Source: Patescibacteria group bacterium (GTDB taxonomy: Bacteria > Patescibacteriota > Microgenomatia > UBA8517). From it: a DNA stretch of 64,000 nucleotides. The DNA lies in NCBI GenBank assembly GCA_041742135.1, contig JBGSJG010000004.1, positions 171,773 through 235,772 on the forward strand. The letters are read 5' to 3'. The notes beneath the pieces were generated by a model, which saw only the letters and a program-made list of their open reading frames with translations, had not been told where the DNA came from and made no database searches. Position 1 is the first letter of the stretch. The number at the start of each line of letters is the position of its first letter. Below are positions 776 to 15,579 of the stretch, in pieces. The position numbers and the translations under genes were made by a program.

Positions 776-961
776 TTAATTGTTAGGCCTAGGCTCCATT
801 GTTATTAATATTGTTCCCACTCTCCAGTCTGGATTACTTAGCTGAACCCGGAGTTTGTACTTTTTGCCTTTATAGTCAAGACGGGCGGAGGATTGCTTGT
901 CAGGAGATTTTTCGGCATCGTCGTATACCTTCTCGATACTGCTTTTAAGTTTTACATCCAT
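776..961 (-). CDS. Small basic hypothetical protein (61 aa) between the two Thr-rich paralogs.
   Basis: ORF track. It lies on the same strand, and its stop sits 2 nt upstream of the next start. There are no recognisable motifs. Confidence 0.3.
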   Translation of the reverse strand: MDVKLKSSIEKVYDDAEKSPDKQSSARLDYKGKKYKLRVQLSNPDWRVGTILITMEPRPNN

Positions 962-1053
962 AGTTTTCTATGTTTGTATTCTATCAAATAACGGGGACTA
1001 TTGGAGAACCTAGAAGTTCCTCGTGTTGTTGCATCTAATTTTAGGTGCAAGAG

Positions 1054-2964
1054 TCAAGCTGCTGTACCATGATCGCTTCTGCCCTGATGTGTGGAGTCCT
1101 CATAGGCTGTAACATACATGTCTTCCACGTCACCATACCAAGTAAACGAATATGCCCCGTCGCCAGATCGGCTGGTTGTGGCCATCACTTCGTGTGTCCC
1201 CGCATCGTGAAGGTAGAGATTAATTGTTCCTCCACCAGAGCCAGAGATGTCTCCAGCAATGGTAAAGGTGATAGTGTGATACGTAACCCACAGGCCATAC
1301 CAGCTAGTTGATAAAGTCGGAGTATCCATCCTGAAAGATCTCGAAGTTTCTATGTCAAGGCGTGTGGGGTCCATATCGTTGGGGTGGCGCTTCCAAGTCT
1401 TTCTTGATGCATATCGAGCGGTAATGTTGCAGTTTTCATTGTCGCTTCTGTATTGTGTAACTCCGAAAGTTTCCCAGCCTTCGCCCTCACCCTCACCCGA
1501 TTGGCGCTCAGCTTGCAAACACAGCGATCCGGAGGTTGTGTTGTCTGTTGTTACCCCTCCTTCAGAGCAAACTCCAGTAAGCCAATAGCTAGACTCAGGG
1601 ATGGGGACAGATTTGCTGTCAACTTGATCACAATAGTTGTCATTGGTGCACTCAGACAGCAAATGAAACCGTGATTGATTGTGTGCACCAACACCATCAG
1701 TTGCTTTACCGCTTGTATAGTTTAAGATTAAAAATCCATTGACGCCCCAGCCATCATTGGCAGTAGAGGAGTAGATTCTGCATTCATACGGCATGCGTCC
1801 GCGTGCCAGCGTTGTAAAAGCTGTTCCTTGCTGGCCTCCAGCATCAATGCGGTGGACGAACATCCACTGTCCGTTTTGTGAACTTCCCGCTGTACAAGTG
1901 TATGTGGTGTAGCTGGCCTGGTTTCCCACAGCAATGTTCATAGATGTTGTGGCTGCGCCGTTTAGGCCAATTACACACGCACTCTCCTTGAGTGTAATAG
2001 TTGTTGGCTCTTGGATAAAGATGTCGCGCCCCCATGAGTCTCCATCTCCAGAAGTAGTTCCTCCAGCCCATCCTGTGGTATCAATCGCTCCGAGAATTAA
2101 ACTATTCCAAACAGTTGTAGTGGAAGAAGGATCAAATTCATATGTGACAGTGACCCATCCTCCTGGGTTGTCACCGCGACTGGTCACAGTAGCGCTCATC
2201 TCAAGCGAGCTGGCAGAAGTTAGAGTTTCTCCTGTGATGTCATAGCATAAGTTAATCCAACAAGATGCTGATAATCCTGCTTCCACATCCCAAACAGTAA
2301 CTGTACTGCCACCGTTTATGCGTAGTTGAATAACAAAGTCTGTGGTGGTGGCCACTACCTCGTTTCCAGTTATTTCCAGAAACGCCTGCCGAAGTGTTAC
2401 AGAGCCTTCCGGTAAAACACTACTGCCCCCAGTTAAAGCGGGGATTGCCGTGGCGCCACCGATAGTTTGCATAGAAGTTGTTAGTACAGATCGGGTAGAC
2501 TCGATAGGGATTCTGATAGTCTTTATGTGGGTACTGCTCGTGTCATCGTAGTCATAAGTGATAACAAGCTTAAATGAGTGATTTATAGTATTGGTCAGCG
2601 TTGCCCCATTAAAGCGCACGTACCAAGTGTTGCTTGTTCCGGACCAATTACTAGCAAAAAAGGCTGTAACGTCGGCCGCATACCACCAGGCTTCATTGTC
2701 GCCCGAGTTTGCTACTGGTGTTCCAAGTGCGTTGTTGTCTTGAGTACCAAACCCGCTGTCTGTCCCAATTGCCAGCTGTACATTCGCTAGGTTTCCAGCA
2801 GTCGTATTATCTCCACGAAACTGACACAAGAGGGAAACACTGCGAAATGCCACGACTGTTTCGGGGATATAAATCGCAATCGATTTGTCTCTGTTTGAGG
2901 CAGCGGTGAGTGTTGTTGCATCTACAGAGCTTGCAAATTCGATTGTTTTTTGTCTTGTTGCCAT
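1054..2964 (-). CDS. Hypothetical 636-aa Thr/Ser/Gly-rich protein with internally repeated beta-modules and no signal peptide.
   Basis: ORF track. Composition is low-complexity and T/S/G/N-rich. Internal module ends recur (KLVITYDYDD, VTVTYEFDPS). It is paralogous to the partial gene at 1..773. Confidence 0.6.
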   Translation of the reverse strand: MATRQKTIEFASSVDATTLTAASNRDKSIAIYIPETVVAFRSVSLLCQFRGDNTTAGNLANVQLAIGTDSGFGTQDNNALGTPVANSGDNEAWWYAADVTAFFASNWSGTSNTWYVRFNGATLTNTINHSFKLVITYDYDDTSSTHIKTIRIPIESTRSVLTTSMQTIGGATAIPALTGGSSVLPEGSVTLRQAFLEITGNEVVATTTDFVIQLRINGGSTVTVWDVEAGLSASCWINLCYDITGETLTSASSLEMSATVTSRGDNPGGWVTVTYEFDPSSTTTVWNSLILGAIDTTGWAGGTTSGDGDSWGRDIFIQEPTTITLKESACVIGLNGAATTSMNIAVGNQASYTTYTCTAGSSQNGQWMFVHRIDAGGQQGTAFTTLARGRMPYECRIYSSTANDGWGVNGFLILNYTSGKATDGVGAHNQSRFHLLSECTNDNYCDQVDSKSVPIPESSYWLTGVCSEGGVTTDNTTSGSLCLQAERQSGEGEGEGWETFGVTQYRSDNENCNITARYASRKTWKRHPNDMDPTRLDIETSRSFRMDTPTLSTSWYGLWVTYHTITFTIAGDISGSGGGTINLYLHDAGTHEVMATTSRSGDGAYSFTWYGDVEDMYVTAYEDSTHQGRSDHGTAA

Positions 2965-3242
2965 CTATTTGAAATCCAAAAAAATAGCTAATCGTGAGAA
3001 GTTAACTTGTCTAGTGGAATCGATAGCTATATTTACTGGTATCATCGCTTTCTTCGAGCAAAAAATAATGACCCCGTATTGCCGTACCCAGCGCATGTGG
3101 ACACCCCAATTCGGCACGTGTAGACGACTAATTTTTGCGTTTACACCTGTTTACTTTTTAACTTAATAACTTTATATCGTTTGAGTATAGTGCTTGTCAA
3201 CATTTTGGCGCACCATTAGCCTTGAAGAATTTTTCCTCAAAC

Positions 3243-3755
3243 CTAGACGTTCCACTTTTTCGTAAACCACCAATTTTTGTCGTCAGTGAGGTTAAGCCTA
3301 AAAGAATGACCCTTTGTATATCCATTGACCGCAGAGATGACTCCGTTTTTAGTTCCAGCTCGATAACCGTTGCCTGCCACAATTCCACCCTTCTTAACTT
3401 TTTTGGTCCATTCGATAATGTCTCGAGCCACTTCGTCAAAGCGCTTGTCTGCATCAATATAAACAAAATCCAAAGAAGAATCTTTAAAATCATGTACCGC
3501 TTTGAGGCTGTAGTTTTTAACGAGTCTACTTGAAAAAGGGGAGAGATTTTTACGGGCAAGGCTATTTTGTGCTCTGGTTTCAGCAGTGGATCTACCGTCT
3601 ACTTCCCAAGAGTCAATTCCGGTGTATTTTAGCCCGGGAATGTTCTTACAAAGAACTTTTCCAAACTCACCGTTTCCTACGCCAACCTCAACACCTGTCT
3701 TGTAGCCTTGGCTACCTAGATACTTTGCCAAATCAACACGATTTTTAAGAGACAT
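3243..3755 (-). CDS. Class I SAM-dependent methyltransferase (Methyltransf_24 / TylF-CmcI-like).
   Basis: Motifs VEVGVGNGEFGKVLC (Gly-rich SAM loop), LDFVYIDADK and GGIVAGNGY. It is paralogous to three other methyltransferase domains in this island. Confidence 0.75.
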   Translation of the reverse strand: MSLKNRVDLAKYLGSQGYKTGVEVGVGNGEFGKVLCKNIPGLKYTGIDSWEVDGRSTAETRAQNSLARKNLSPFSSRLVKNYSLKAVHDFKDSSLDFVYIDADKRFDEVARDIIEWTKKVKKGGIVAGNGYRAGTKNGVISAVNGYTKGHSFRLNLTDDKNWWFTKKWNV

Positions 3756-3800
3756 TTATAAACTAACATTAGCAACTGGCTTGCTACTATGCAAGATGTA

Positions 3801-5498
3801 TTAATTGAATTGCTTGATTATTTCGCTGGTTTTTCCCCATCCAGGGATGTCGTCTGTTGTGATAAACCCTTTGGCCGTGTCTTTGTCTCGAAAATCATTT
3901 ACACTCCATTTATTCTTGCTCAAATTGTGCCCGTGCTTGATGTCAAGCATTGGGAAAGGAGCTTTCCAAGACGCAGTTAGTTTAGTGTCTCGGCCACCGG
4001 GCTCAAAGCCCATTGAGCTTTTGTAGCCGTATTTTCTAACTTCGACGACGCGTTTTCGATAAAACTTAAGTAGGTGTTCGCGGTAAGCACACAAACCTGA
4101 AACTTGGTTTGCGTCCCAATGTACCGCAAAGCCATCGGTTGATCTTACTCGCCACCAGTTATGGTCGTAATAAAAAATATCTTTTTTGGGTGGGGTAAAT
4201 TCAAAGTGGGACGGGTGATAAATACAATCGTGTTCGCAGAAGTAAATTACTTCGGCGGTGCTTGCTTCAAGGCCCGCGAGAATTTGCTCAAACATTGCTA
4301 AATAGCTTCGTGTGAGGTGTTTAAGGTGGATGTTTTTAGTTCCAAAATGAGGCATGGGTTTAAGCGACACAGAGACAATTGGAATGCCCGAATCTTGGCT
4401 AATGTGGCGCAGCTGTCTTTGTACGGCATGGGCAATTTTGAGTTTCAACTGGTTGTCTGTATAAAACACAATGCCTTTTGTGGGCGTGGCAGAGTAGACA
4501 ACACCATTGTCGGAGATGTCTTCTGTTGGCTCAGCTTCGTCGGGCTTTGTGGTAAATTCCGGAAAAGAAAAAGTATTTGCTTTAAGGTTTGCCAAGTCTT
4601 GTTCTGTCCAGCCCTTGACCGGCCAAAACTTTTCTACTAGCCAGGAAAACGGGTGTTTTTGCAAGGGCCACTGATTATTAAAAAATAGATTTTTTGCATA
4701 ATTTTTGGCTTTCTCCTGGTCCCTGCCACTCATCGGGTATGGGAAGCCAAAGTCTCCACCTTGAGTGCGAAACATGTGTGCATACCATGTTTTTTTATTA
4801 ACCATAACTCGGCCACCAGAAAGCCAAGTTTTTGCCGCAACCTCTATGCCTTGAGAGCCCCAACTGCCAAAGTTTTCATCGCAAATGCCCAACTCCCAGT
4901 ATTTTTCGCGCGTTAGCATAAAGCACGATCCCTGAATTGACATACTCTCTGTTAGCTCTCCCTTGCCTTCTGGGCGCCTGCTATATTCACCAAAGTACTG
5001 AAAATGAGGCGAAGAATCAAAACAATAAGAAACACTTTCAGGCCGCGGTTTTGCTATCCACACCACATCTCGAGTTGTTGGCTTTCCACAAACAGTACAA
5101 GGTCCACTAGGGCTTTGGTATCTGCGGTGGCCATCTGGGCATACCCAGTCAAAAGCGTGGAGATTTCGCATCAGAGGGATCATCGTCCAATCATCGTGCA
5201 TCTCATTCATTAGTTTGACGTCAAAGCCTTCGTCAAACGCACAGTGAGCATCACACTTCATTACATACTTGGCGGTGGATAATCTAGCAGCTTGGTTTGT
5301 TGCAGCTCGTTGGCCGATACTTTCTTGATTATGGACGAGTGTTACTCGTTCGTGATCAATCACGCCCGGGTCAGCCCAAGCGCCATCAAGCACGGCAATA
5401 ATCTCTGTGTCGCCTCGCATATTTTTAAGAATGTCCTCAATGGTGCGCGCCAAGAACATCTCGTTTCTGGCAGGAATTAATATTGAAAGATCAGCCAT
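3801..5498 (-). CDS. Two-domain glycosyltransferase: N-terminal GT2 (GT-A fold) fused to a C-terminal domain that is paralogous to the upstream standalone gene.
   Basis: ILIPARNE...IAVLDGAW...KCDAHCAFDEGFD matches the GT2 pattern (DxD-like DAH). The C-terminal half (IYHPSHFEFTP) parallels ORF 5491..6195. The start was moved to the internal ATG at 5498..5496, which gives an ATGgcTGA 8-nt overlap with the upstream stop. The ORF-track start at 5765 would overlap the neighbour by 275 nt. Confidence 0.75.
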   Translation of the reverse strand: MADLSILIPARNEMFLARTIEDILKNMRGDTEIIAVLDGAWADPGVIDHERVTLVHNQESIGQRAATNQAARLSTAKYVMKCDAHCAFDEGFDVKLMNEMHDDWTMIPLMRNLHAFDWVCPDGHRRYQSPSGPCTVCGKPTTRDVVWIAKPRPESVSYCFDSSPHFQYFGEYSRRPEGKGELTESMSIQGSCFMLTREKYWELGICDENFGSWGSQGIEVAAKTWLSGGRVMVNKKTWYAHMFRTQGGDFGFPYPMSGRDQEKAKNYAKNLFFNNQWPLQKHPFSWLVEKFWPVKGWTEQDLANLKANTFSFPEFTTKPDEAEPTEDISDNGVVYSATPTKGIVFYTDNQLKLKIAHAVQRQLRHISQDSGIPIVSVSLKPMPHFGTKNIHLKHLTRSYLAMFEQILAGLEASTAEVIYFCEHDCIYHPSHFEFTPPKKDIFYYDHNWWRVRSTDGFAVHWDANQVSGLCAYREHLLKFYRKRVVEVRKYGYKSSMGFEPGGRDTKLTASWKAPFPMLDIKHGHNLSKNKWSVNDFRDKDTAKGFITTDDIPGWGKTSEIIKQFN

Positions 5499-6195
5499 AA
5501 ATTCGTAGTACCTCCTCGGCAGTTCCCCAAGGCGCGACATGGTCCGCCCGGATTTCGCTATGAGCTTTTCTGTTACCAAGTTCTGTATAGCCCAGAGCTT
5601 CTGATGTCGAAAACATAATATTTGGCTCTTCTGATTTATACTCCTCAGCGGGAACAGGGAAGATGCCAAGGTGGTTTTCGAATCTGCCAGGCTCACCCCA
5701 ATACATTCGCAAAAGCCCGGGAGGAGTTTCTTCAAGCGATGGATATTTGCTGTAGCGCTCTTCAAGCGTCTTAACTAGGGCGCTTTTGGTAGTGATCAGG
5801 CTATTCATAAGCTTTCGTTCGCGATAGGAAAATATTGGAGGCTTCACCCAAGAAAATATTGACCATTTATTAATGTTGTAAGAAAACATGTTGTCGTCAG
5901 CTGGGCGATAGTCAAAGTGAGAAGGATGATAAAGCATGTCGTCTTCAGCCATGGCAACGTACTTTGTTTGGGCGGCTCGGGCTCCAAGAAGCACTTGGTG
6001 GTAGATCATATAATTGGATCTTTTTTGTACTCCAATACAGATATTAGTGCAATTGTTTCCGATTACTGTTGGTTTAAAAGAAACGCTAACAATAGGCGTG
6101 TCGCCGATGGCTTTTAATAAATACTCTTGAGTGTTGGCCATAAAATGGTCACTGTTCATGTTTGCTGTGTAGTAGATGATTGTCAGGTCGTTCAT
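5491..6195 (-). CDS. Hypothetical protein, homologous to the C-terminal domain of the adjacent GT2 fusion (unknown, sugar-transferase-associated domain).
   Basis: The shared motif EDDMLYHPSHFDYRP parallels CEHDCIYHPSHFEFTP in the neighbour. It is coupled to neighbours on both sides by 4-8 nt overlaps. Confidence 0.55.
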   Translation of the reverse strand: MNDLTIIYYTANMNSDHFMANTQEYLLKAIGDTPIVSVSFKPTVIGNNCTNICIGVQKRSNYMIYHQVLLGARAAQTKYVAMAEDDMLYHPSHFDYRPADDNMFSYNINKWSIFSWVKPPIFSYRERKLMNSLITTKSALVKTLEERYSKYPSLEETPPGLLRMYWGEPGRFENHLGIFPVPAEEYKSEEPNIMFSTSEALGYTELGNRKAHSEIRADHVAPWGTAEEVLRIYG

Positions 6196-7049
6196 ATATT
6201 TTGGTTAATAAACTCTTGCCATATTTTGTATTTTTCTTTGTATATTTTGAAGTATGGATGATCTTCTTGGCCTTGCCAATAGGTTTCGTTAAGTTCAATC
6301 CCCGGCGCTTCATCTGTAAGGTTTTTAATTGGATTAGAAGCTCTTTTGTGCTCAACTGTGGCAAAGCCCGAAACAACTGCCCAGCCAAGTTTATCTAATT
6401 CGCGCTTGCTTGTGATCCCCGCGAATATATCATCGAAACGATTGATACCCAAAGCCCACGGCGCATGAAAGATATAGGGGAGAACTTTTCGTTTGAACGC
6501 AAGATTCATGCTACACATTGGGTAGTAAACACCTTTTGGAATGGGGCCTTTATAAAAAGTCGTTTTTCGTTTGTCACCAAGAACGAGCTGAGTTGGGGCA
6601 TCCCAGTCTCCCGAGCCTTCCCATACGCCGTGCGAGATAACAACTTCAGCTTCGTTTCTAATTGAGTAAGGGAAGCCTCTTGTGTAATCTGTGGCTGTGG
6701 AAATCCAGCTCACAGGGACATTTTGGTTGAGCGCAATAAGGTGGTCGGCGATAGTGTCGCCAAGAGGGAAGACGTCGTCATCCAAAGTAATGATAGTGTC
6801 AATGTCTTTAAGATTTTTCGCGACATAGGCGAAGCCCAAGTTTCTGATTCCTGCATTAAAGTTGGTCAATGCTTGAGCGTGTTTGCCCATCACCTCTTTG
6901 ACGCCTTTGCCATTAACTGTAGGATTTTTCCCGTCTTCGACTACAACCAATGTGCAGTCGTGCGCCTCAAATAGCTCCTGCCATGCACTTTTAAAAGCCT
7001 TGAACATACTCGGCCTGATGGTTGGAATTACAATAGCGATATTTGCCAT
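6192..7049 (-). CDS. RGP / GT75-family protein (reversibly glycosylated polypeptide / UDP-L-arabinopyranose-mutase-like).
   Basis: I recognise similarity to plant RGP1. IAIVIPTIRP...LVVVEDG parallels DIVIPTIRN...LIIVQDGD. ISHGVWEGSGDWDAPTQLV parallels VSHGLWLNIPDYDAPTQLV. PMCSMNLAF parallels PMCGMNLAF. RFDDIFAG parallels RYDDMWAG. HKRASNPIKNL parallels HSKASNPFVNL. Confidence 0.7.
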   Translation of the reverse strand: MANIAIVIPTIRPSMFKAFKSAWQELFEAHDCTLVVVEDGKNPTVNGKGVKEVMGKHAQALTNFNAGIRNLGFAYVAKNLKDIDTIITLDDDVFPLGDTIADHLIALNQNVPVSWISTATDYTRGFPYSIRNEAEVVISHGVWEGSGDWDAPTQLVLGDKRKTTFYKGPIPKGVYYPMCSMNLAFKRKVLPYIFHAPWALGINRFDDIFAGITSKRELDKLGWAVVSGFATVEHKRASNPIKNLTDEAPGIELNETYWQGQEDHPYFKIYKEKYKIWQEFINQNI

Positions 7050-7051
7050 GG

Positions 7052-7714
7052 TTATTTGTGTTTGCTCACGAAAGTTAAATATTCTGTTTCGTATTGATTT
7101 TCGCTGATCTCAGCCACATTTATTTTTTCTTTATAGATCACATAGGGCAGTGCAATTTGGTCACAAGTAAAATATCTGGACTGATAATACCACCAAGATT
7201 TAAGCATGTCGTGAACATTTTTGGTGTTTCTGTAAACAAAAGCGGTTGAGGTGTAAAGCACGGTATCGCGAAAGCCTGTGTCTGCCATCGCCTCGGCTAG
7301 CTGCTCTTTATGGAGCCCATTTTTGTATCTGGAAGTGATATATCGGCCGCCCTCTTGCAGTTTTTCTTCGATATGGTTAGTTTCTTCTGTAATTGAATTT
7401 CTCCAAGGATGTTTGAAAAAAGCCATGTCACTTGAGCCTAGTTTGTCTAAAAGCCAGACGGTTGAGTCCGCCCTAAGCATCGAAAACGAACTATCAAGCC
7501 AAATGTAAACATCATAATCGGGAAGCATCTGCCAGCCAAAAAGCTTGGGGATTCTGTATTGGAAACGTGGCGTAAGCCCTGTGATCGGAGGGAAGTCGTG
7601 GTCGGTGAAGCGGTGGAAATGTACTTTGGTAAAACCTGTTGGTGTGTCTTGGGAAACTGGGTCAATAGGTACATCGAAACTTCCTAAATTGGCCGACAAG
7701 ATAGCAATTTTCAT
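7052..7714 (-). CDS. Hypothetical protein in the glycosylation island (possible nucleotide-sugar transferase-like; function unassigned).
   Basis: ORF track. The gene is tightly packed between the RGP-like gene and the methyltransferase genes (2-nt spacers). It has no signal peptide or TM helix, and the YDVYIWLDSSF segment is acidic. Confidence 0.5.
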   Translation of the reverse strand: MKIAILSANLGSFDVPIDPVSQDTPTGFTKVHFHRFTDHDFPPITGLTPRFQYRIPKLFGWQMLPDYDVYIWLDSSFSMLRADSTVWLLDKLGSSDMAFFKHPWRNSITEETNHIEEKLQEGGRYITSRYKNGLHKEQLAEAMADTGFRDTVLYTSTAFVYRNTKNVHDMLKSWWYYQSRYFTCDQIALPYVIYKEKINVAEISENQYETEYLTFVSKHK

Positions 7715-7715
7715 A

Positions 7716-8972
7716 TTACTTGATCTTTACATACATCCAGCTATTTTCTCGATAGTCTGGAGGGTTTTTAAGCTCAAACAAGGGGTGGATCGCATAAGCC
7801 TCGCACCAGGCCATAACAACGTTTTTGACATGCCCAAACTGGCGATTCTTGCTGGTACTAAAATCGTGCCCCGCTATAATTCCACCCTTTCTTACCTTTT
7901 TGCTCCATACCGCGATGTCGTTGGTAACGGCCTGAAACGAATGGTCGGCATCGATGTATACAAAGTCCAAAGATTCGTCTGCAAAGTCTTTTGCCGCCTC
8001 AACGCTCCACGTTTTAATAATTTTATTATTTGGATATTTGGCAAGTTTATTTTTAGCTATCTCGTACGCACGATCGTGGTCTCTTTGTTTTCGAAAGTTT
8101 TTATAAACAGGGTAGAATAGCCATGGATCAACCGAGAAAAGCTTCAGATCTGGATTGGATTGGCAGAGTACTTCCGAGTAAGTTCCCTCCAAAACACCAA
8201 CTTCCACTCCGACTTTAAAGCCAAGTTCGCGAAACAACACAGGTAAATCTTTATATCGATTGCAGGAGATTTTTATAGGGGAAGGCTGGCTAAGATCGAC
8301 ATTAAATTTTTTGACGATGTATTCAAGAGTCGCGTCCATTTGAGGCTTAACGATTACCCAAGATCGATAGCGATCACGAACTTCGCCCGGAACAATTTCT
8401 TTTGTCCCAAGCACGTACCAAGTTTTTATGTTGTTTTGCATGGCAAAGCGGTTTGTTGCAGCCACGACATCGCAAAAATTGTTTTTTTGTCTTATGTAGT
8501 CATGCCCCGCCAAAATTCCGCCGGGCTTGATTTTTTTGTACCACTGGTTAATGTCTTCAGACACAAAAGGATCTCTGTGGTTGGCATCAATGTATACAAA
8601 ATCTAACGAGTCGTCTTCAAAGCGGCGCAAGGCGTCTACGCTAAACTCTTGAATCAGCTCGTAATTTTTATATTTTGAAAGTCGCGCTACGGCATCTGAT
8701 TTTAATTTTCCGAGGGTTGTTGTGGATGTGTAATCACGGTAGCCGCGGTAGGGAGTATAAGGATCGACGCCAATAACTTTCATGTCTGGGTTATTGCGGC
8801 AGAGAACCTCTGAGTACTCGCCCGAAGCCACGCCAACTTCCACTGCGGTTTTGAAATTAAGTTTTTTAAGCCACGCGGCAAGATCGTCACGCCCGACATT
8901 GGGTATTTCAAGCGGCATGCTTTCGTCTAACTTTAGCTTGTAATTTTTGGCTATAAACTCTGAAACGTTCAT
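7716..8972 (-). CDS. Tandem-duplicated class I SAM methyltransferase (two Methyltransf_24-like domains in one polypeptide).
   Basis: Domain 1 has AVEVGVASGEYSEVLC...DFVYIDANHRD...GGILAGHDY. Domain 2 has GVEVGVLEGTYSEVLC...DFVYIDADHSF...GGIIAGHDF. The start was set at the ATG 8972..8970, which forms an ATGA overlap with the upstream stop. The ORF-track start is 8999. Confidence 0.75.
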   Translation of the reverse strand: MNVSEFIAKNYKLKLDESMPLEIPNVGRDDLAAWLKKLNFKTAVEVGVASGEYSEVLCRNNPDMKVIGVDPYTPYRGYRDYTSTTTLGKLKSDAVARLSKYKNYELIQEFSVDALRRFEDDSLDFVYIDANHRDPFVSEDINQWYKKIKPGGILAGHDYIRQKNNFCDVVAATNRFAMQNNIKTWYVLGTKEIVPGEVRDRYRSWVIVKPQMDATLEYIVKKFNVDLSQPSPIKISCNRYKDLPVLFRELGFKVGVEVGVLEGTYSEVLCQSNPDLKLFSVDPWLFYPVYKNFRKQRDHDRAYEIAKNKLAKYPNNKIIKTWSVEAAKDFADESLDFVYIDADHSFQAVTNDIAVWSKKVRKGGIIAGHDFSTSKNRQFGHVKNVVMAWCEAYAIHPLFELKNPPDYRENSWMYVKIK

Positions 8973-9538
8973 ATTTTTACCCACATCCAAGACCGCCATT
9001 TGTCACGGTACATTCCCGGGAGGCTTTGGCGAAGTCCCCAAATAATCAGTGGGCTGATACCATGCTTTTTAACATATTTGTTTATCGTTGTCTTCACCAA
9101 AAACTGACCGTTCTTGGTTGGTATCGTGTCGTAATAATCGTGCCCTGCAACAATTCCGCCCTTTCTGACCTTTTTGCTCCAACAATCTATGTCGCTCACA
9201 ACAAATTCCGGTTGGTGATTTGCATCAATATATACAAAATCCAAAGACTCGTCATCGAATCTATTTGCGGCATCGATGCTGTATTCTCGGATAAACTTAT
9301 AATTAGGGTAAGGACTAAGGCGATCATATGCCTCTTTAAAATATTGCTCTTGCCGTTTTTGAGACGATGAGTTCTCTGTACGCTTGTCCGCTGGGTTTTT
9401 CCTTGAGTTTTCCTCGGACTCCCAAGGATCAATGCCATAGATTTTCATTTGGGGATTTTTTTTGCACAAAACCTCAGAATAACGCCCTCTTTCAACGCCG
9501 ATCTCAGCACCAACTCTAAAATCAAGCTCATGCAACAA
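8969..9538 (-). CDS. Class I SAM-dependent methyltransferase (fourth paralogous domain).
   Basis: Motifs EIGVERGRYSEVLC, LDFVYIDANHQPEF and GGIVAGHDY. It has a Lys/Arg/Glu-rich insert. Confidence 0.75.
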   Translation of the reverse strand: MLHELDFRVGAEIGVERGRYSEVLCKKNPQMKIYGIDPWESEENSRKNPADKRTENSSSQKRQEQYFKEAYDRLSPYPNYKFIREYSIDAANRFDDESLDFVYIDANHQPEFVVSDIDCWSKKVRKGGIVAGHDYYDTIPTKNGQFLVKTTINKYVKKHGISPLIIWGLRQSLPGMYRDKWRSWMWVKI

Positions 9539-9632
9539 GCTTGCAAGGTCTTCTCTTCCTGTGTTTGGGATTTCTACCTTCCAGTCGGGCTTGAGTTTGT
9601 ATTTTGTGAAGATATGCTCAAGGGTGTCTATT

Positions 9633-10640
9633 TTAATCTGCCTCCTCTCGAGCTTTGTCGATTATTATTTGCTCTTTCCAGTTTGCGGGCCAAGTAGGTA
9701 CTGGCCAGAATTTCTCAATTAGCCAGTCAAAATCGTGAACCTTCTTGGGGAATCGGTTGTTGAGCCAGTAATCAATACAATTTTTGCGTCCTCGGTCACG
9801 CTCTGCTTGATGAAAGGCGTAACGTGCATTTGAAAACCCGTAACCCTTACCAGCCTTACCTTTGTGCCAGTGCGCATACCATGTTTTTTTATTAACTATC
9901 ACGCGGCCGCCGCCAAGCCAGGTGTTGTTACAGACTTCTTGAGCTTCCTGGATGAAAGAACCATACAGTTCAATATTCATTGGGCCGATCATCTTGAACC
10001 ACCAATCCCGTGTGGTGAAGTAGAGCGACCCTTGTGCCGACATGTTGTCGTCAATCAGGATGTCTTTGCGGTCAAAATACCTCTGCCTCCAGTCATCACC
10101 ATGGAGGCCGCACGCAGGATCGTGAGTTTTTATGTAAGGGTAAGTCAGGTACATATAGTCTATTGGAGGGCGTGCGTCTGGAGCTACCTCCCATTTTTCG
10201 GGGTCAAGCCGTAGCCTTCGAGGGATAACAACCCAGTTGTCATCACAGTCCGCCTTGAGCTTCGTATCAAACCCTTGATCGAACAAACAGTGGCCGTCAG
10301 ACTTCATAACATATTTTCCTCTGGCAATGGCCATGCCAGCGTTAATACACTGTCTCATGCCTTTGTTCTCATGAATTGTTCCGTGATGAAGAATAATGAG
10401 ATTTTTGTGTTCAGGAAGTGGGGGATCAGGCCAATAGCCATCAAGCACGACGATCACTTCAATTGAGCCTTCGGCCTTGGTAAAAAGATCGTTGACTGTT
10501 TGTTCGAGATACTTCTCGTTTCTGGTTGGAATAATAACAGACACGTCCGGCATGATCATCCCAAAAATACCACACTTCTTGGCATAAGTACATACATATT
10601 TTATTAAACTAGAAGAGGCTACTGTAGTAATCGTAAGCAA
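9633..10640 (-). CDS. GT2-family glycosyltransferase.
   Basis: VSVIIPTRNE...IEVIVVLDGYW...KSDGHCLFDQGFD. It is paralogous to the GT2 domain of 3801..5498 (VNKKTWYAHW parallels VNKKTWYAHM). The track start is a TTG at 10640 overlapping the upstream gene by 32 nt. The real start is probably the internal Met near 10554-10560 (MIMPDVSVII). Confidence 0.75.
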   Translation of the reverse strand: MLTITTVASSSLIKYVCTYAKKCGIFGMIMPDVSVIIPTRNEKYLEQTVNDLFTKAEGSIEVIVVLDGYWPDPPLPEHKNLIILHHGTIHENKGMRQCINAGMAIARGKYVMKSDGHCLFDQGFDTKLKADCDDNWVVIPRRLRLDPEKWEVAPDARPPIDYMYLTYPYIKTHDPACGLHGDDWRQRYFDRKDILIDDNMSAQGSLYFTTRDWWFKMIGPMNIELYGSFIQEAQEVCNNTWLGGGRVIVNKKTWYAHWHKGKAGKGYGFSNARYAFHQAERDRGRKNCIDYWLNNRFPKKVHDFDWLIEKFWPVPTWPANWKEQIIIDKAREEAD

Positions 10641-11235
10641 GTTTCTCTCGAGCAGCCCATTTACCGGGGAAGTCAGAATCGCCTTTAGTATAGCGGAATG
10701 AACTCGATTCAGTGTCTTCTCTCATAATCAGCCAACCGCCATCCTTGTTTGTAAATCCATAATAGGTAATTACGTTATCGTCGATTTCAGAAATTTGATA
10801 GCCATCGAGTGGCTGGCGTTCGGCTGGGGAGATTTTTTTACCTTCGCTGTTTTCAAGAGACGTTAAGCTGGGTGTGCTCGCTTGGCCCGGCAGAATGTTG
10901 CCGACTTTTCCTCGGAGTAGTGAAAACAGGAAGAAGGAAAGTCCTGCAGCACCCACAAGTTTCAGAAATGCCCTCTTGTCAATGTCTGCCACCTCGACAG
11001 AGGTTTTGCGGGCTTCTTCAGGTGGCTCTACTGTTTCCGGCTCCGCCCTGGATACCTGAATGGAAACCTCTCTGACTTGTTTTTTGTGTGGCAAGAGCTT
11101 GACCGCCAAGATGGCGAGTAGAGGATACAACAGTGTGGCAACCCCCAACTGTGTGTACGTTCGAGCGGTTAAAAACAAAATAACAACAACAAGGAAAGCT
11201 ACTGATAAACTGGTATAGGTGAGGGTCTTTCGCAT
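10609..11235 (-). CDS. Hypothetical membrane protein (two N-terminal TM helices, charged linker, third TM, ~100-aa C-terminal extracytoplasmic domain).
   Basis: ORF track. Hydrophobic stretches are LSVAFLVVVILFL, ATLLYPLLAILAV and LVGAAGLSFFLFSLL. No motif is recognised. Confidence 0.5.
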   Translation of the reverse strand: MRKTLTYTSLSVAFLVVVILFLTARTYTQLGVATLLYPLLAILAVKLLPHKKQVREVSIQVSRAEPETVEPPEEARKTSVEVADIDKRAFLKLVGAAGLSFFLFSLLRGKVGNILPGQASTPSLTSLENSEGKKISPAERQPLDGYQISEIDDNVITYYGFTNKDGGWLIMREDTESSSFRYTKGDSDFPGKWAAREKLAYDYYSSLF

Positions 11236-11238
11236 GGC

Positions 11239-12378
11239 TTAATAAATAAACGCGTAATCTGCGGATATAAAACCAGTATCGTCAAGCAGCTTTATTTCAA
11301 GCCACCCGGGATGTAAAGAGACCAAGTCAAATACATCTCCAGATTTCGCTTCTCCAATTTTCTCTGATTGTGCCGTCGGCTCTTTGCGAATGTTTACGCT
11401 CGCCAAGGCACTTTCTGCAATTACTGTAACTTTTGCGTAACCTAACGGGCTTGGAGTCTCTAGGGTCTCCACCACTTCCTCAACAGGTTCAAGTGGGGCA
11501 GGTGAGGGTGTTTCTACGGTTGTAACTGCCAACACTTGCGTTTCCTGCGTGTCTTGAGCAGAAGAAATTCTTACGTTACTGTACCCCACGCCGACAAGCA
11601 TAAAAAATAATACTATTAGGCTAACGTACTCAGGAGTTCTTGATAAACGCACTATTTCCGCATTTAAGGCCTCATGCTTGCGAGGACTACTTGCAAGGAT
11701 CGGTTTTGTATCAGTCTTTGCAAGTGTATGGGGGATATTCTCTAGAACTATGTCTAAAAGCAAATCGCCGTTTTCTAACTCGGCCTGATGCTTCTTTTGC
11801 AAATCTACAAAACTTTTAGCGCCTTCCTCTTTTAAGGCAGAAAGGACAATTTTTGTGTTCACCCACGATGTTTGCTTTTTCCCCGAATATTCGGGATATG
11901 TTGAGATGCGAGCGCCGTTTTGGATGTGCGCAGTGAGATGAGCAAGTTGCGCCGATGTTTCAATTTTCGCAGACTTATAAGGCCCTTCAAAGAGTGCTCC
12001 TGAGTGTTTATACTTTCTGTTGAAGTAAATTGAATAGCGTGTGCAAAGCGATCTGATAAAACTCTCGATTGCTTTCTCCTCAACTTGGTGGAGGAGAAGA
12101 TGGAAGTGGTCTGGGAAAAGGCTAAACGCCAAAAGTTGGATTTTTCCGAAGTAGTTTTTTGGCAGATGCGGCGTTCCTTTGTATGTGCGGCCTTTTACTG
12201 TAAAATCTTTTTTGAGGCTACTTGGGTCGTGAGGTGCGCTCAAATACTCGCCTAAATAGGCTACAAATACGCTGTAATCATCGTCATCTCCGAAGATGAT
12301 TCTATTCGCTGCACCTTTGTTGTAGACGTGCGAATTTGTCCCTTTTTCAGGCGACCTGAGCAGGCTCTTGGCAGGCAT
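11239..12378 (-). CDS. RAYT / IS200-like HuH tyrosine-transposase domain fused to a TM helix and a C-terminal SH3b-like domain.
   Basis: The HuH motif is PDHFHLLLH. YFNRKYKHSGALFEGPYKSAKIE matches the Y1-transposase/RAYT signature (YFNRRxGRSGxLFQGRYK). This is followed by the hydrophobic LIVLFFMLVGVGY and then GYAKVTVIAESALASVNIRKEPTAQSEKIGEAKSGDVFDLVSL..WLEIKL (SH3b-like). Confidence 0.7.
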   Translation of the reverse strand: MPAKSLLRSPEKGTNSHVYNKGAANRIIFGDDDDYSVFVAYLGEYLSAPHDPSSLKKDFTVKGRTYKGTPHLPKNYFGKIQLLAFSLFPDHFHLLLHQVEEKAIESFIRSLCTRYSIYFNRKYKHSGALFEGPYKSAKIETSAQLAHLTAHIQNGARISTYPEYSGKKQTSWVNTKIVLSALKEEGAKSFVDLQKKHQAELENGDLLLDIVLENIPHTLAKTDTKPILASSPRKHEALNAEIVRLSRTPEYVSLIVLFFMLVGVGYSNVRISSAQDTQETQVLAVTTVETPSPAPLEPVEEVVETLETPSPLGYAKVTVIAESALASVNIRKEPTAQSEKIGEAKSGDVFDLVSLHPGWLEIKLLDDTGFISADYAFIY

Positions 12379-12490
12379 AATTAAACTTAGCTTGTAAGAA
12401 GAGACTTTGCAAGTATCAGTTTGATAGCATGAATAGCCATTAGAGATACGCTATACTATTTAGAGAATCCGCTCGAATTGGTAGAGAAGC

Positions 12491-12563
12491 GGGCCTGTAG
12501 CTCATCTGGTAGAGCGCTGCATTCGCATTGCAGAGGTAAGGGGTTCGATTCCCCTCAGGTCCA
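12491..12563 (+). tRNA. tRNA-Ala (anticodon CGC).
   Basis: It forms a cloverleaf. The acceptor is GGGCCUG/CAGGUCC with the G3:U70 Ala identity pair. The D-arm is GUAGCUCAUCUGGUAGAGCG. The anticodon arm is CUGCA-UUCGCAU-UGCAG. The T-arm is AGGGG-UUCGAUU-CCCCU. The discriminator is A and CCA is not encoded. Confidence 0.9.
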
Positions 12564-12688
12564 CTAAATGGTGGTTGAGCACATCAAGCCCAGAAGGATT
12601 AGTGGAGTTATGGAAAGGTATGTCTTCGCAAGCAGAAGTGGCTTAGGATTCAAATGACGGGCATAGTTATTTAATCTCTTCAAGTTAA

Positions 12689-14737
12689 CTAGGGGAGCGG
12701 ACTAGGTGTGACTGAAGCTTCAGGCGTACCAGTAGCTTCAGGTGCGGGTGTTACTTCTGGTTGAGGTGGCTCTGCATCTTCAGGTAACTCGATCGGGGGA
12801 GTAAGCGTTTCTTCCTCGCCAGATGGAGGCGGAGTTAAATTGGTTGAGCTTTCGTCCGTGACAGTTTGTCCCGCCTTGAGGTTCTGCAAATCTTCTAATG
12901 CTTTGGAAGCGACACTAAAGTCATCTGAATTGCGATCCACAAGTGCCAAGACCTGACTCATGGAAGCAATGGCTCGGTCAATATTGCCATTCTCTCTGTA
13001 AGCTACAGCCAGGTTGTAATGAGCATTTGCGTGGTTTGGTTTGGTAGCGACAGCCAGTTTAAAGACATCTATGGCATCTTCGTATGCTTTGGCGGAGTAA
13101 TAGATTCCACCCAAAGCAATTCTTGCATTGGTGTTTAGAGGGTCAAGTGCGATGGCCTGAGCGTAAGTCTGTACAGCAAATGCATCTGCGCCTTGAGCGA
13201 GTGGCATAACTGTTCTGTATATTGAGGCCAAAACCTCCCAATTGCCGGCACGAGCTGGGTTAAGCGTTACCGCCGCTTTTCCCTCAGCGATAGCTTGCTG
13301 AATAAGTGTTGCAATTGCACTTCTGTCTTCTTCAGTCAATTCTTCTTTTTGGGCTAGGGAGTTAGCAAGTGCCAAGTTGATCTGCGCATATGTAATTCTG
13401 TAGCGGTCAACGTAAAGATTTGTAGTAATTGCAGCTCGAAGAGTGTCATACGCTTTAGCGCCATCATTTCTAACTATGTGATCCAACGCCTGCTTATAGG
13501 TAAGATCAGCAGCAACAATCCTTGTAGCCTGCAAGCCAACGTAGCCTACGAACACGATTATCGGCAAGCTAGCGAAAATTACGGGGAGCCTTGCTGCAAA
13601 TGGAATGGATGCCCCGTCGTGCTCAGTATTAAACAAACCCATTTTAACGGACGTGCTTTGGCTAATTACTGCCAATAAGACAAAAAAGATGAATAGTACG
13701 GTCGGAGTTACAGGGAATAAAAGCATTGAGACTGCGAGTATGATAGCGGAAAGCTCTGCAGCTCCTTCTGGCTTTATAAAATGTTTAGTACCTTTCTTGG
13801 CATTGGAGACGACCATTCTCGCCAAGAAGTAAAACAAAAGGATCAACGAGGCGGTTCCTACTAAGCCAGTTTCAGTTATAGCGGTGAATAGATAATTTTG
13901 GCCAGAGGTGAATCTGGTTGACCAAAGATCACTGGCATTATACGAAGCGGGTCTAAATTGATTAAATGCTGACAAGTAGTTTCCAGGCCCCACACCCAAT
14001 AGGGGGTTTTGTTTTAGTGAGTCGACGGCTATGGACCATGAAGTGTCGACTCCAGGTAGTGCTAACGATGTATCTTTTCCTGGAAGGATATTAACTAGAG
14101 ACATTAAAGCGGCCAAAACCATCAATGCAAAAGTGATTCCCGAAAGAGCCTTAACAGCTACAGATTTTTCGCTTATAACATATGACAAAGCTAGGGGGGA
14201 CATGGCAACTAGAATTATTAATGCAGGCAATGGACCACCAAGCGTTGTAAATCCGGCTGACTGCATAAAAGCCGGTAGCCCAAGCCCTCGAAATACCCCC
14301 GCGGAGGCAAAAAGAACAACTACTGCAAGGATTGCGCTCGAGCCGAGCATTACCATTTTGAGCACATCTTTTCCTTTTTTGTTCATTTGGCTAACGATAA
14401 AGAAGCCAAGTCCTGAAAGTACAACTGCAGTGGCTGTGCCGGGGAGGAAAAAAGCCTCCATTTTGTTTGGCGTTTGGAGTATTGCGCTTGCAATGTAGGC
14501 CGCGGCAATCAGTATCACAGGAAGATCAAAAGCGCTTGCAGAGAAGGTGAGTGAATTTTTGATTAAGTTGCGAGCGCTTTTAATCAACAACACTATACCA
14601 ATAGTAATAGTTAGAAACGCTAGCTTGGGTGTAACGAATGCATTGGCGAATTGTGGTAGGACCAATAAAGGTAGCAAACCAACCGCCGCATGCATTATGT
14701 AGTTTTCAAATCTGCTATTAGTTGTTTGATTATCCAT
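12689..14737 (-). CDS. Polytopic membrane protein, O-antigen-ligase/Wzy_C-like, with C-terminal TPR repeats and a Pro/Thr/Glu-rich tail.
   Basis: There are more than 10 predicted TM helices in the first ~400 aa. The C-terminal segment has TPR-like repeats (AYEDAIDVFKLAVATKPNHANAHYNLAVAYRENGNIDRAI). The terminal low-complexity tail is TPPPSGEEETLTPPIELPEDAEPPQPEVTPAPEATGTPEASVTPSPLP. The Wzy_C assignment is by architecture, not a verified motif. Confidence 0.6.
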   Translation of the reverse strand: MDNQTTNSRFENYIMHAAVGLLPLLVLPQFANAFVTPKLAFLTITIGIVLLIKSARNLIKNSLTFSASAFDLPVILIAAAYIASAILQTPNKMEAFFLPGTATAVVLSGLGFFIVSQMNKKGKDVLKMVMLGSSAILAVVVLFASAGVFRGLGLPAFMQSAGFTTLGGPLPALIILVAMSPLALSYVISEKSVAVKALSGITFALMVLAALMSLVNILPGKDTSLALPGVDTSWSIAVDSLKQNPLLGVGPGNYLSAFNQFRPASYNASDLWSTRFTSGQNYLFTAITETGLVGTASLILLFYFLARMVVSNAKKGTKHFIKPEGAAELSAIILAVSMLLFPVTPTVLFIFFVLLAVISQSTSVKMGLFNTEHDGASIPFAARLPVIFASLPIIVFVGYVGLQATRIVAADLTYKQALDHIVRNDGAKAYDTLRAAITTNLYVDRYRITYAQINLALANSLAQKEELTEEDRSAIATLIQQAIAEGKAAVTLNPARAGNWEVLASIYRTVMPLAQGADAFAVQTYAQAIALDPLNTNARIALGGIYYSAKAYEDAIDVFKLAVATKPNHANAHYNLAVAYRENGNIDRAIASMSQVLALVDRNSDDFSVASKALEDLQNLKAGQTVTDESSTNLTPPPSGEEETLTPPIELPEDAEPPQPEVTPAPEATGTPEASVTPSPLP

Positions 14738-14823: not shown

Positions 14824-15579
14824 TTAAAATATAGAATGATATACTTCTGTATTATCAACTTTCCACTGAAAGTCGCATTCCCATTCAAGTGAGCTTTCAA
14901 TTGCAACAACAAAGTATCCTTCACCTTGGCTTTTGACATACAGACTTTGACCGTTTGTGGGAGAGTTTGCTGTAAGACTAATAAATGATTCATCGTTCAC
15001 AAGATTACTTAGCACGAGTGCTTCCTTTTTATTGGCGGCAATTTCGCTCTTACCAACGGACACGGCATAGCTTTCAATCGACTGACTGGTTGTTGTCTCG
15101 AGTGGGTCAGTAATTGAATTATGGATATCGTCTGTAAGTGGTGGAGTTTTTAAGACTATAAAATCGTCCGTACCAGAAGAAGCGAGTCTAGCAATTGCCT
15201 TGCTGTTACTATTAATAGTATTGCTTTCCGGAACCATTGCGGGATTATTTACTTCTATGTAAGAAACTGAAGGGGAGGCGCTTCGAAAGAAATGGCTTGA
15301 CACTGCGGAAAGAGAGAGGATAGATAAAGCCGCCAGGGCATATACCCCAAATGATTGGTAACGTCGTGAATTAGTGAATTCTAAATATCTCTTGATAGCG
15401 TAATTTCTCCTTTTGATGGTGGCTGGGCTGTAAGCTTTTTCTTCATCGCTAGCCAAAAAGGAACGAACATCGCTAATATAATTTTTAACTGTTGTTTCTG
15501 AGGCGCCAGATTTTTCAAGCGATCGCTTAAAGTCGGCTAATACTTTAGGGGTACTGTGAGAGTGTAACTTTATAATCAT
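14824..15579 (-). CDS. Hypothetical membrane-anchored protein with an N-terminal phage-integrase-SAM-like (core-binding-type) helical domain.
   Basis: N-terminus is FKRSLEKSGASETTVKNYISDVRSFL...IKRRNYAIKRYLEF (integrase N-terminal-like). It has a single TM (VYALAALSILSLSAV) and a Ser/Thr/Asn-rich C-terminal region. Confidence 0.45.
   Translation of the reverse strand: MIIKLHSHSTPKVLADFKRSLEKSGASETTVKNYISDVRSFLASDEEKAYSPATIKRRNYAIKRYLEFTNSRRYQSFGVYALAALSILSLSAVSSHFFRSASPSVSYIEVNNPAMVPESNTINSNSKAIARLASSGTDDFIVLKTPPLTDDIHNSITDPLETTTSQSIESYAVSVGKSEIAANKKEALVLSNLVNDESFISLTANSPTNGQSLYVKSQGEGYFVVAIESSLEWECDFQWKVDNTEVYHSIF

Follow-up and report, generated by a model that had tools for sequence, protein, structure and literature searches.

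A predicted GT75 pyranose/furanose mutase in a Patescibacteria glycan cassette shared with phages

Here, we describe a gene of family GT75 in a 64,000-nucleotide stretch of DNA from a Patescibacteria group bacterium (assembly GCA_041742135.1, contig JBGSJG010000004.1, positions 171,773 to 235,772; hereafter the window). GT75 is the family of the reversibly glycosylated polypeptides (RGPs), the UDP-arabinopyranose mutases (UAMs) and MtdL. The gene, which lies on the minus strand at window positions 6192–7049, belongs to this family both by family match and by fold, and it is part of a glycan cassette that recurs on phage contigs. We consider it likely that its product is catalytically competent and supplies a furanosyl donor within this phage-shared cassette. 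The simplest reading of the locus is a native glycan cassette in which a module consisting of the GT75 gene and its upstream neighbour, gene F, has been exchanged with phages of ~40–45 kb. The protein alone is an unremarkable addition to a known family, and it is the distribution that merits recording: the nearest relatives lie mostly on phage contigs of ~32–45 kb, and the chromosomal cassette of candidate division WWE3 and the Microgenomates occurs both in forms that include the mutase and in forms that lack it. An active enzyme would provide a route to a furanose sugar that is independent of flavin adenine dinucleotide (FAD) in organisms of very reduced metabolism, and it would also mark a variable, phage-exchanged glycan locus.

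Family, fold and active-site residues

An earlier note on this stretch, made from the sequence alone and giving no strand, had proposed that the protein is a homolog of the plant RGP/UAM enzymes. Our searches bear this out. The open reading frame (ORF) at 6192–7049 runs from ATG to stop over 285 codons and encodes 285 aa. The public gene call (P0001, 271 aa) begins at M15 and loses the conserved first beta-strand, IAIVIPTIRP, with the nucleotide-binding residue P9. We prefer the 285-aa start because it is conserved across homologs. The protein matched the Pfam profile PF03214 (RGP) with an E-value of 7.5e-32 and 111.3 bits (cutoff 23.8), residues 3–256 aligning with profile positions 5–284 of 342. 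This profile search was the check that the earlier note had proposed, and PF03214 was the only significant Pfam family, far above threshold, with no other GT-A family among the significant matches. NCBIfam contained no model for the protein, and neither Pfam nor NCBIfam gave a match to UDP-galactopyranose mutase (UGM) or to an FAD-binding family. PHROGs contained no family for the GT75 protein or for the window proteins D, F and A.

Comparison with individual proteins led to the same family. Raphanus UAM2 (P0271) aligned by BLASTP over 313 columns with 32% identity (E=1e-40). In the PDB, sequence searches returned solely rice UAM2 (8cid; E=8e-14 with the single sequence and 4.6e-21 with a profile) and MtdL (~1e-9), which are the two GT75 proteins with solved structures. 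An AlphaFold2 model of the protein, built on 39 homologs, reached a pLDDT of 83.4 and a pTM of 0.86. In a Foldseek search with this model, the best match was again 8cid (OsUAM2; E=5e-13, TM 0.73), followed by MtdL (~1e-12, TM 0.70–0.78). The modelled fold is thus that of a GT-A enzyme and is unrelated to that of the flavoenzyme UGM. The C-terminus of the model consists of two helices (residues 240–258 and 265–284), and the protein is ~60–90 residues shorter than plant UAMs and MtdL.

The functional residues of the family have been defined by structures and mutants of MtdL (PMC9937993) and by mutants of OsUAM and HvUAM (PMC6861824). To locate them, we used an alignment of 39 homologs (60–77% identity) together with an alignment of plant class-1 UAMs from Raphanus (P0271), Miscanthus (P0291), Physcomitrium (P0310) and Chlamydomonas (P0345). 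The plant sequences were fetched with an AtRGP1 sequence that served as a probe only. All of the sequence blocks quoted in the earlier note occur in the translation, and all seven correspond to blocks in the plant enzymes: IAIVIPTIRP to LDIVIPTIRN, LVVVEDG to LIIVQDG, TLDDDVF to TIDDDCF, ISHGVWEGSGDWDAPTQLV to VSHGLWLNIPDYDAPTQLV, PMCSMNLAF to PMCGMNLAF, RFDDIFAG to RYDDMWAG and KRASNPIKNL to SKASNPFVNL. The GT75-specific core motifs RGFPY, DWDAPTQL, PMCSMNLAF, RFDD and H..ASNP were all found in the window protein. The gene and its predicted functional sites, all on the minus strand, are as follows:

6192..7049, minus strand: gene E, GT75 (RGP/UAM/MtdL family), predicted Mn2+-dependent nucleoside diphosphate (NDP)-sugar pyranose/furanose mutase (ORF, PF03214, PDB matches, AlphaFold2 model, identity to plant UAM)
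6774..6782, minus strand: D90-D91-D92, DxD/DDD metal and nucleotide-sugar motif (MtdL D109–D111; OsUAM1 position 110), invariant in the 39 homologs and aligned to the plant and MtdL DDD; role from PMC9937993
6678..6680, minus strand: R124, predicted autoglycosylated/nucleophilic Arg (OsUAM1 R158, MtdL R159), in the invariant RGFPY motif; role from PMC6861824 and PMC9937993
6657..6659, minus strand: R131, counterpart of OsUAM1 R165, which is essential for mutase activity; invariant; role from PMC6861824
6600..6608, minus strand: D148-W149-D150, third DxD motif (plant DYD, MtdL DVD; MtdL D195 is essential), invariant and aligned; role from PMC6861824 and PMC9937993
6495..6521, minus strand: PMCSMNLAF, predicted sugar-binding strand (MtdL S228/Q229 region), S180-M181 here and G-M in plants, from the alignment
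6429..6440, minus strand: R204-F-D-D207, with R204 as the counterpart of the beta-phosphate/sugar-binding Arg (MtdL R257) and D207 as that of the proposed catalytic base (MtdL D260, AtRGP2 D246); R204 and D207 invariant; roles from PMC9937993
6348..6350, minus strand: H234, counterpart of the Mn2+ ligand MtdL H287 (missing in the class-2 RGPs AtRGP5 and OsUAM2), invariant; role from PMC9937993

Residues D90–D92, R124, R131, D148, R204, D207 and H234 are all kept in the window protein, and each is invariant among the 39 homologs and throughout the alignment with the plant UAMs. The equivalence of the DDD region with that of the plant enzymes, claimed previously, was recovered in alignment with the metal and nucleotide motifs of both plant UAMs and MtdL. 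The conserved autoglycosylated arginine, for which no position had been given, corresponds to R124. Both R124 and R131 lie in YTRGFPYSIR, whose plant counterpart is VRGYPFSLR. Because the protein keeps active-site residues that are lost in class-2 RGPs, a working mutase is favoured over a scaffold. Judged from these residues, the window protein is most likely an active Mn2+-dependent NDP-sugar pyranose/furanose mutase, and it is unlikely to be a primer protein only or an inactive class-2 form.

A mechanism can be proposed by homology to MtdL and the plant UAMs. The NDP-pyranose would be bound through Mn2+, held by D92 and H234, with contributions from D90/D91, R204 and the phosphate loop. R124 would then attack C1, with D207 acting as the base and D148 and R131 assisting. 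The sugar ring would reopen and close on O4, after which the NDP-furanose would be released.

The sugar-binding strand is also a site of intein insertion in at least one homolog. Inteins with LAGLIDADG homing endonucleases interrupt three GT75 homologs (P0121, P0183 and P0189). In P0121, read residue by residue, the intein lies between ...GIYYPM and CIMNVAF, the +1 extein residue being the invariant Cys of PMC(S/G)MNLAF.

The cassette in the window, on phage contigs and in WWE3

The GT75 gene lies within a co-directional run of genes on the minus strand, in the order I, H, G, F, E (GT75), D, C and B. Glycosyltransferase genes flank it, in agreement with the adjoining glycosyltransferases described in the earlier note. 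The other members of the run and its chromosomal flank are as follows:

9633..10559, minus strand: gene I, GT2 glycosyltransferase, ~305 aa (PF00535; 80% identity to a 305-aa WWE3 orthologue)
8969..9538, minus strand: gene H, 189 aa, Methyltransf_24 methyltransferase (PF13578, E=3.2e-16)
7716..8999, minus strand: gene G, 427 aa, two tandem Methyltransf_24 domains (PF13578, E=2.6e-32, two stretches)
7052..7714, minus strand: gene F, 220 aa, TOD1/MUCI70-like, glycosyltransferase-like, directly upstream of GT75 (PF04765, E=4e-5, 23.5 bits against a cutoff of 21.4)
5491..6195, minus strand: gene D, 234 aa, GT-A-fold glycosyltransferase-like, with invariant E84-D85-D86, its start overlapping the GT75 stop (AlphaFold2 and Foldseek)
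3801..5498, minus strand: gene C, 565 aa, GT2 with a C-terminal domain paralogous to D (PF00535)
3243..3755, minus strand: gene B, 170 aa, Methyltransf_24 S-adenosylmethionine-dependent methyltransferase (PF13578, E=9.7e-11)
10609..12378, minus strand: genes J (208 aa, two to three transmembrane-like segments) and K (379 aa, SH3_3 and a Y1_Tnp-like region), chromosomal flank, kept in the WWE3 loci and missing from the phage cassettes

Several junctions in the cassette overlap or are a few bases apart. Besides the overlap of the GT75 stop with the start of D, the stop of F and the ATG of GT75 are separated by two bases (7050–7051), and the real start of gene C, an ATG at 5498 with a GAGGAGG ribosome-binding site, overlaps the stop of D. 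Gene I probably starts at the ATG at 10559 or 10553, not at the TTG at 10640. A scan of positions 900–12700 found promoter and terminator sites to be no more numerous than in shuffled sequence, so operon boundaries are not defined by such sites. Gene D had no match in Pfam, NCBIfam or PHROGs. Its AlphaFold2 model (pLDDT 93) was closest to SpsA and the fucosyltransferase WrtF in Foldseek (E 1e-7 to 1e-6), and metagenomes contain at least 244 relatives of the D family. No significant match emerged when profiles of the D and F families were searched against the PDB.

The enzymes of the cassette comprise a GT2 (I), four Methyltransf_24 domains (one in H, two in G and one in B), F, D and C. None of genes B to I encodes a transmembrane-like segment, and the cassette contains no flippase, polymerase or initiating transferase, which points to a short methylated glycan made in the cytoplasm on a soluble acceptor and not to a Wzx/Wzy-type polysaccharide. 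The mutase would supply the furanosyl donor for this short O-methylated glycan. Directly downstream of the cassette, a 636-aa protein that is soluble and rich in Thr, Ser and Gly is encoded at 1054–2964 on the minus strand. It matched no family, homologs were missing from all fetched loci, and the idea that it is the target of glycosylation is pure speculation.

Next, we focused on the relatives of the GT75 gene. The 120 closest protein clusters (61–100% identity) are all metagenomic PF03214 proteins of ~285 aa, and several of the closest homologs have already been named 'reversibly glycosylated polypeptide/UDP-arabinopyranose mutase' by JGI. The whole family is small, comprising 830 clusters (50% identity, E<=1e-3) among 1.84 billion representatives. 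The window's own contig is the only one longer than 46 kb among those of the 120 closest clusters, 16 of which are on contigs of 32–45.3 kb. The three homologs that we inspected all lie on contigs of 36–45 kb with large terminase, portal and capsid genes, and their cassette order (GT2, small protein, Methyltransf_24, F, GT75, D, GT2) is that of the window. A scan of IMG/VR identified 63 viral contigs, many of 40–46 kb, that encode a GT75 relative with 31–69% identity. PHROGs families for the major head protein, large terminase and portal were found in the flanks of the phage loci, and in 37 of the 68 loci not derived from metagenome-assembled genomes (MAGs) a major capsid, large terminase or portal gene was located within 10 kb of GT75. 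This phage-shared context was not foreseen in the earlier note. Among the phage genomes in INPHARED, there was a single weak match (LR756511.1, 205984–206775, 32% identity) in an uncultured phage of 595 kb. This huge phage genome is an unannotated record, and no other phage record of GenBank contained a relative of GT75.

Clustering of all neighbouring ORFs revealed three types of cassette around GT75. Type A is window-like, and type B contains other glycosyltransferase-like families and a short-chain dehydrogenase/reductase (SDR). In type C, an RmlB-like NDP-hexose 4,6-dehydratase is typically encoded just upstream of GT75, and FkbM and Methyltransf_24 methyltransferases and a GT4 follow. The 4,6-dehydratase-like SDR family (c2) was present in 26 fetched loci, typically upstream of GT75 with a median offset of ~0.9 kb, and matched TIGR01181 with 217 bits. 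The motif STDEV[YF]G, a 4,6-dehydratase signature that separates this enzyme from UDP-xylose synthase, was present in 14 of 27 copies, and for these 14 we rejected an identity as UDP-xylose synthase. One type A phage cassette contained a GalE-like epimerase. In addition, P0015, a protein of 469 aa with 68% identity to the window GT75, is a natural fusion whose GT75 domain is joined to a C-terminal GT-A/GT2-like domain (AFIDDDD). Such a Rosetta-stone arrangement hints at direct cooperation of the mutase with a glycosyltransferase. Both the pairing with dehydratase or epimerase genes and this fusion fit a role of GT75 in a nucleotide-sugar pathway.

Several type A phage cassettes (L002, L003, L023, L024 and others; e.g., L003:1012-1794) also encode a shortened, UGD-like nucleotide-sugar dehydrogenase of ~260 aa. 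It is without the start of the N-terminal NAD-binding domain and without the C-terminal domain, and is accompanied by a 171-aa Rossmann-like protein (cluster c7). Some of the bin labels of these loci may be wrong: L004, labelled as a Gammaproteobacteria MAG, and L002 and L003, labelled as Saccharimonadales MAGs, all bear a cassette of the Patescibacteria/phage type. The flank genes J and K of the window have homologs on L004 as well, and L002 is 38.9 kb long, a phage-like size.

The cassette is also found on chromosomes. WWE3 contigs of 255–853 kb encode close homologs of D, and three WWE3 loci (L091–L093) are syntenic with the window, containing K, J, I, methyltransferases, F, D and C. GT75 is missing from all three. 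Identity between the window and WWE3 proteins is 80% for I, 76% for D, 68% for C and 45% for F. Genes I, D and C of the window are thus nearer to the WWE3 chromosomal genes (68–80%) than to the phage copies (44–60%), whereas gene F is nearer to the phage-type copies (59–61%) than to the WWE3 copy (45%). Relatives of GT75 were found only as phage-type copies and on a few short MAG contigs. The F gene of WWE3 (L091:8512-9957, 481 aa) encodes a TOD1/MUCI70-like protein fused to a class I methyltransferase domain, and this fusion without GT75 has the appearance of a different allele of that site. We conclude that the cassette is probably a native chromosomal locus of WWE3/Microgenomates-type Patescibacteria, and that F and GT75 form an accessory module that is shared, and probably exchanged, with phages.

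To place the GT75 protein among its relatives, we joined 219 sequences in a neighbour-joining tree. In it, 124 prokaryotic and viral sequences form a clade that includes the window protein; together with the protein of a Microgenomates MAG contig, the window protein nests inside a clade dominated by viral contigs. The plant UAMs and OsUAM2 form a separate long-branch clade beside MtdL, outside the window clade. A phylogeny had been suggested in the earlier note; its outcome agrees with membership in GT75, but not with a close relationship to the plant enzymes.

The window is cellular. In a comparison with the phage loci, the cassette genes (3243–10640) matched and nothing else did. Its cellular genes include LeuRS, ArgRS, ComEA/ComEC, F-type ATP synthase subunits, iPGM and three tRNAs, and the nearest relatives of its proteins with a named source belong to Candidatus Microgenomates and candidate division WWE3. 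The source contig is 453,693 bp long in the protein database, so the description of the source as a small-genome bacterium is reasonable. A prophage in the window was considered but gained no support: none of its called ORFs (80 aa or longer) resembles a structural gene of the phages in the fetched loci, and the flanking genes J and K are those of the chromosomal WWE3 loci. The matches of a 251-aa ORF (14824–15579) to integrase-SAM-like families are all sub-threshold.

Three consecutive giant ORFs on the minus strand (28579–33540, 33561–38861 and 38861–53359) encode proteins of 1653, 1766 and 4832 aa. The first two contain six to seven Laminin_G_3 (concanavalin-A-like lectin) repeats and DUF2341; the sole match of the third was an N-terminal MerR/HTH_17. 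Giant concanavalin-A-like lectin proteins of this kind have been reported for Patescibacteria (PMC12911398), and the three may be surface adhesins. A 682-aa protein (12689–14737, minus strand), encoded beside tRNA-Ala (12491–12564, plus strand), has about ten transmembrane-like segments followed by C-terminal TPR repeats. Its architecture recalls GT-C-type glycosyltransferases or O-antigen-ligase-like proteins, and Pfam detects only the TPRs. Finally, a GH5 cellulase-family protein is encoded at 26941–28566 on the plus strand, with a sub-threshold C-terminal match to a T4SS pilin (21.1 bits against a cutoff of 26.6).

Predicted role, alternatives and substrate

The earlier note had offered two roles for the protein: incorporation of a furanose sugar or a self-glycosylating primer. 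The first is better supported, as the residues of an active mutase are kept and related loci contain NDP-sugar genes and a glycosyltransferase fusion. The second holds that the protein is only a self-glycosylating polypeptide or arginine glycosyltransferase, serving as a primer or carrier for the neighbouring glycosyltransferases and making no furanose donor. It draws on the conservation of R124, on a cassette without an obvious acceptor or primer gene, and on the finding that several UDP-sugars serve GT75 proteins for autoglycosylation of the conserved Arg, a reaction whose role has been left open (PMC6861824). However, autoglycosylation and mutase activity coincide in every characterised case, and the glycosylated Arg has been read as a covalent intermediate (PMC6861824, PMC9937993). 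The dehydratase and epimerase genes beside GT75 in related loci are those expected of a nucleotide-sugar pathway, and the syntenic WWE3 cassettes do without GT75, which is a poor fit to an essential primer. We therefore regard a primer role as improbable, although it is the best of the alternatives.

Phages are known to glycosylate and arabinosylate DNA bases, and the close homologs of the GT75 protein are overwhelmingly on phage contigs. The cassette could thus be a phage-derived system for DNA hypermodification, for example placing sugars on hydroxymethylated bases, instead of one for a protein or cell-surface glycan. Against this, WWE3 genomes also keep the cassette as a stable part of the chromosome, on contigs of up to 852 kb. 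With four to five GT-A domains and four O-methyltransferase-like domains, it has more than known systems for the sugar modification of DNA would require. In the phages, it sits in the head/structural module and not in the replication module. No base-hydroxymethylase gene was seen in the flanks of ±10 kb, in which no systematic search was made. DNA modification is, in our view, quite unlikely.

It is less likely still that the protein is a non-catalytic, class-2-like RGP that acts as a scaffold or regulator of other glycosyltransferases. Its best sequence match in the PDB is indeed a class-2 protein, rice UAM2, and plant class-2 RGPs are inactive alone (PMC6861824, PMC9937993). In alignment, however, OsUAM2 has DDN instead of DDD and no His at the H234 position, and the inactive AtRGP5 is missing the equivalents of His287 and Arg257 (PMC9937993). 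The window protein has DDD and keeps both H234 and R204, invariant in the 39 homologs. A generic GT-A glycosyltransferase of another family, with a superficial likeness to plant RGPs, can be dismissed: the GT-A fold is common to GT2 and other families (PMC9937993), but PF03214 was the sole Pfam match at 111 bits, all GT75-specific core motifs are present, and other GT-A enzymes matched the model at ~1e-5 or worse (the next at ~3e-5), some seven orders of E-value behind the GT75 structures.

The positions that set nucleotide and sugar preference are mixed in the window protein. P9 (MtdL T13) and M181 (MtdL Q229) are plant-like. K41, N65 and A66 match neither the plant enzymes, which have D (in DGD) and D-S (in KDSACR), nor MtdL, which has N, S and D. 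The substitutions T13P, D87S and Q229A in MtdL reduced GDP binding or abolished activity (PMC9937993), and neither the GDP-selecting residues T13, N42 and S86 nor the essential D87 and Q229 of MtdL are kept in the window protein. As K41 and N65-A66 differ from the plant D and D-S, specificity for UDP-L-arabinose is not to be assumed. Our best guess is a UDP- or dTDP-linked (pyrimidine-nucleotide) sugar of galacto configuration, such as L-arabinose, D-galactose or D-fucose.

Several observations weigh against this view of the protein and its cassette. Of the three base-specificity positions (MtdL T13, N42 and S86; here P9, K41 and N65), one is plant-like and two are unlike both plants and MtdL. 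The window cassette contains no nucleotide-sugar precursor gene (UGD, UXS or epimerase), and its context therefore gives no indication of the substrate. The protein is without the plant C-terminal extension of ~60–80 residues, and its C-terminal region is smaller than the helical oligomerisation region of MtdL (residues 292–376). R124 lies within a flexible loop of the model (residues 114–130) that has low confidence. The GT75 tree is a simple neighbour-joining tree without support values, the IMG/VR contigs are predictions, and some of the 'MAG' contigs may be misbinned phages, which together make the direction of transfer uncertain.

A more far-reaching possibility can be put forward tentatively. 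With at least three cassette architectures around the gene, environmental phages, probably those that infect Patescibacteria, may repeatedly employ GT75 mutases as an auxiliary function not described so far, with F and GT75 as a swappable allele that shifts one sugar of a methylated glycan to the furanose form. The window would then be a case of phage-to-chromosome replacement in a native WWE3-type cassette. The glycan could decorate the virion, as has been proposed for the capsids of mycobacteriophages, or be carried on the surface of the host. If this were true, the ring form of a glycan would be a target of the phage–host arms race in ultra-small bacteria. We consider this doubtful as a whole, and distinctly less probable than the furanosyl-donor role itself.

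Comparison with known systems

Plant class-1 UAM/RGP proteins (AtRGP1–3 and OsUAM1/3) share the Pfam family and fold of the window protein, with 32% identity over nearly the full length. Common to both are the DDD motif, the nucleophilic Arg, the second Arg, the third DxD, RxDD and H..ASNP. Like the plant enzymes, the window protein is predicted to be cytosolic and soluble, without a cofactor domain. It differs from them in being ~60–80 residues shorter, without several internal loops as well as the C-terminal extension, and at K41 and N65-A66, as described above. The plant enzyme stands alone in the cytosol, whereas the window gene forms an operon with glycosyltransferase and methyltransferase genes. 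Judging by the tree, the window protein is not an orthologue of the plant UAMs, but belongs to a separate prokaryote/phage clade.

UGM (Glf) and its relatives that make UDP-arabinofuranose or dTDP-fucofuranose have the same predicted outcome and the same position in a pathway, feeding the glycosyltransferases of surface glycans. UGMs and UAMs even show weak cross-activity on each other's substrates (PMC6861824). However, fold and mechanism are unrelated: UGM is a flavoenzyme, and the window protein is predicted to be a metal-dependent GT-A protein without an FAD-binding domain.

We found no paper that links GT75 or RGPs with phages. A study of Patescibacteria phages reported the nucleotide-sugar auxiliary genes galE, rmlB, rmlD and gmd, but no mutase (PMC12911398). 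The closest parallel is the mycobacteriophage Corndog (cluster O), in which gp35–38 form a glycosyltransferase/O-methyltransferase cassette within the structural operon, placed similarly to the phage GT75 cassettes. Capsid decoration has been proposed for the Corndog cassette (PMC4351075). In contrast to the cassettes described here, that of Corndog has no GT75 mutase, and the window copy is chromosomal without virion genes around it. The likeness is one of position, and glycosylation of virions by the Patescibacteria-type cassette is only a hypothesis by analogy.

A bacterial member of GT75 is not in itself new, as the family already includes the characterised bacterial enzymes MtdL and Hyg20, and CAZy lists bacterial and archaeal members (PMC9937993, PMC6861824). 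MtdL and Hyg20 are pyranose–furanose mutases of GDP-L-galactose and GDP-L-fucose in the biosynthesis of A201A and hygromycin A (PDB 7xpr–7xpv and 7yua). They are Mn2+-dependent and FAD-independent, and their genes lie in the biosynthetic cluster that consumes the furanose, as we propose for the window gene. MtdL residues R159, D195, R257, D260, H287 and D109–111 all have counterparts in the window protein. The sequence match is weaker than that to plant UAMs (E ~1e-9, mostly in the core region), the window protein is ~90 residues shorter, and T13, N42, S86, D87 and Q229 of MtdL are replaced by P9, K41, N65, A66 and M181. In addition, the gene belongs to a glycan cassette of Patescibacteria and phages and not to an actinomycete antibiotic cluster. 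If active, the compact 285-aa enzymes could serve as minimal GT75 scaffolds for making NDP-furanoses, a use that has already been proposed for MtdL (PMC9937993).

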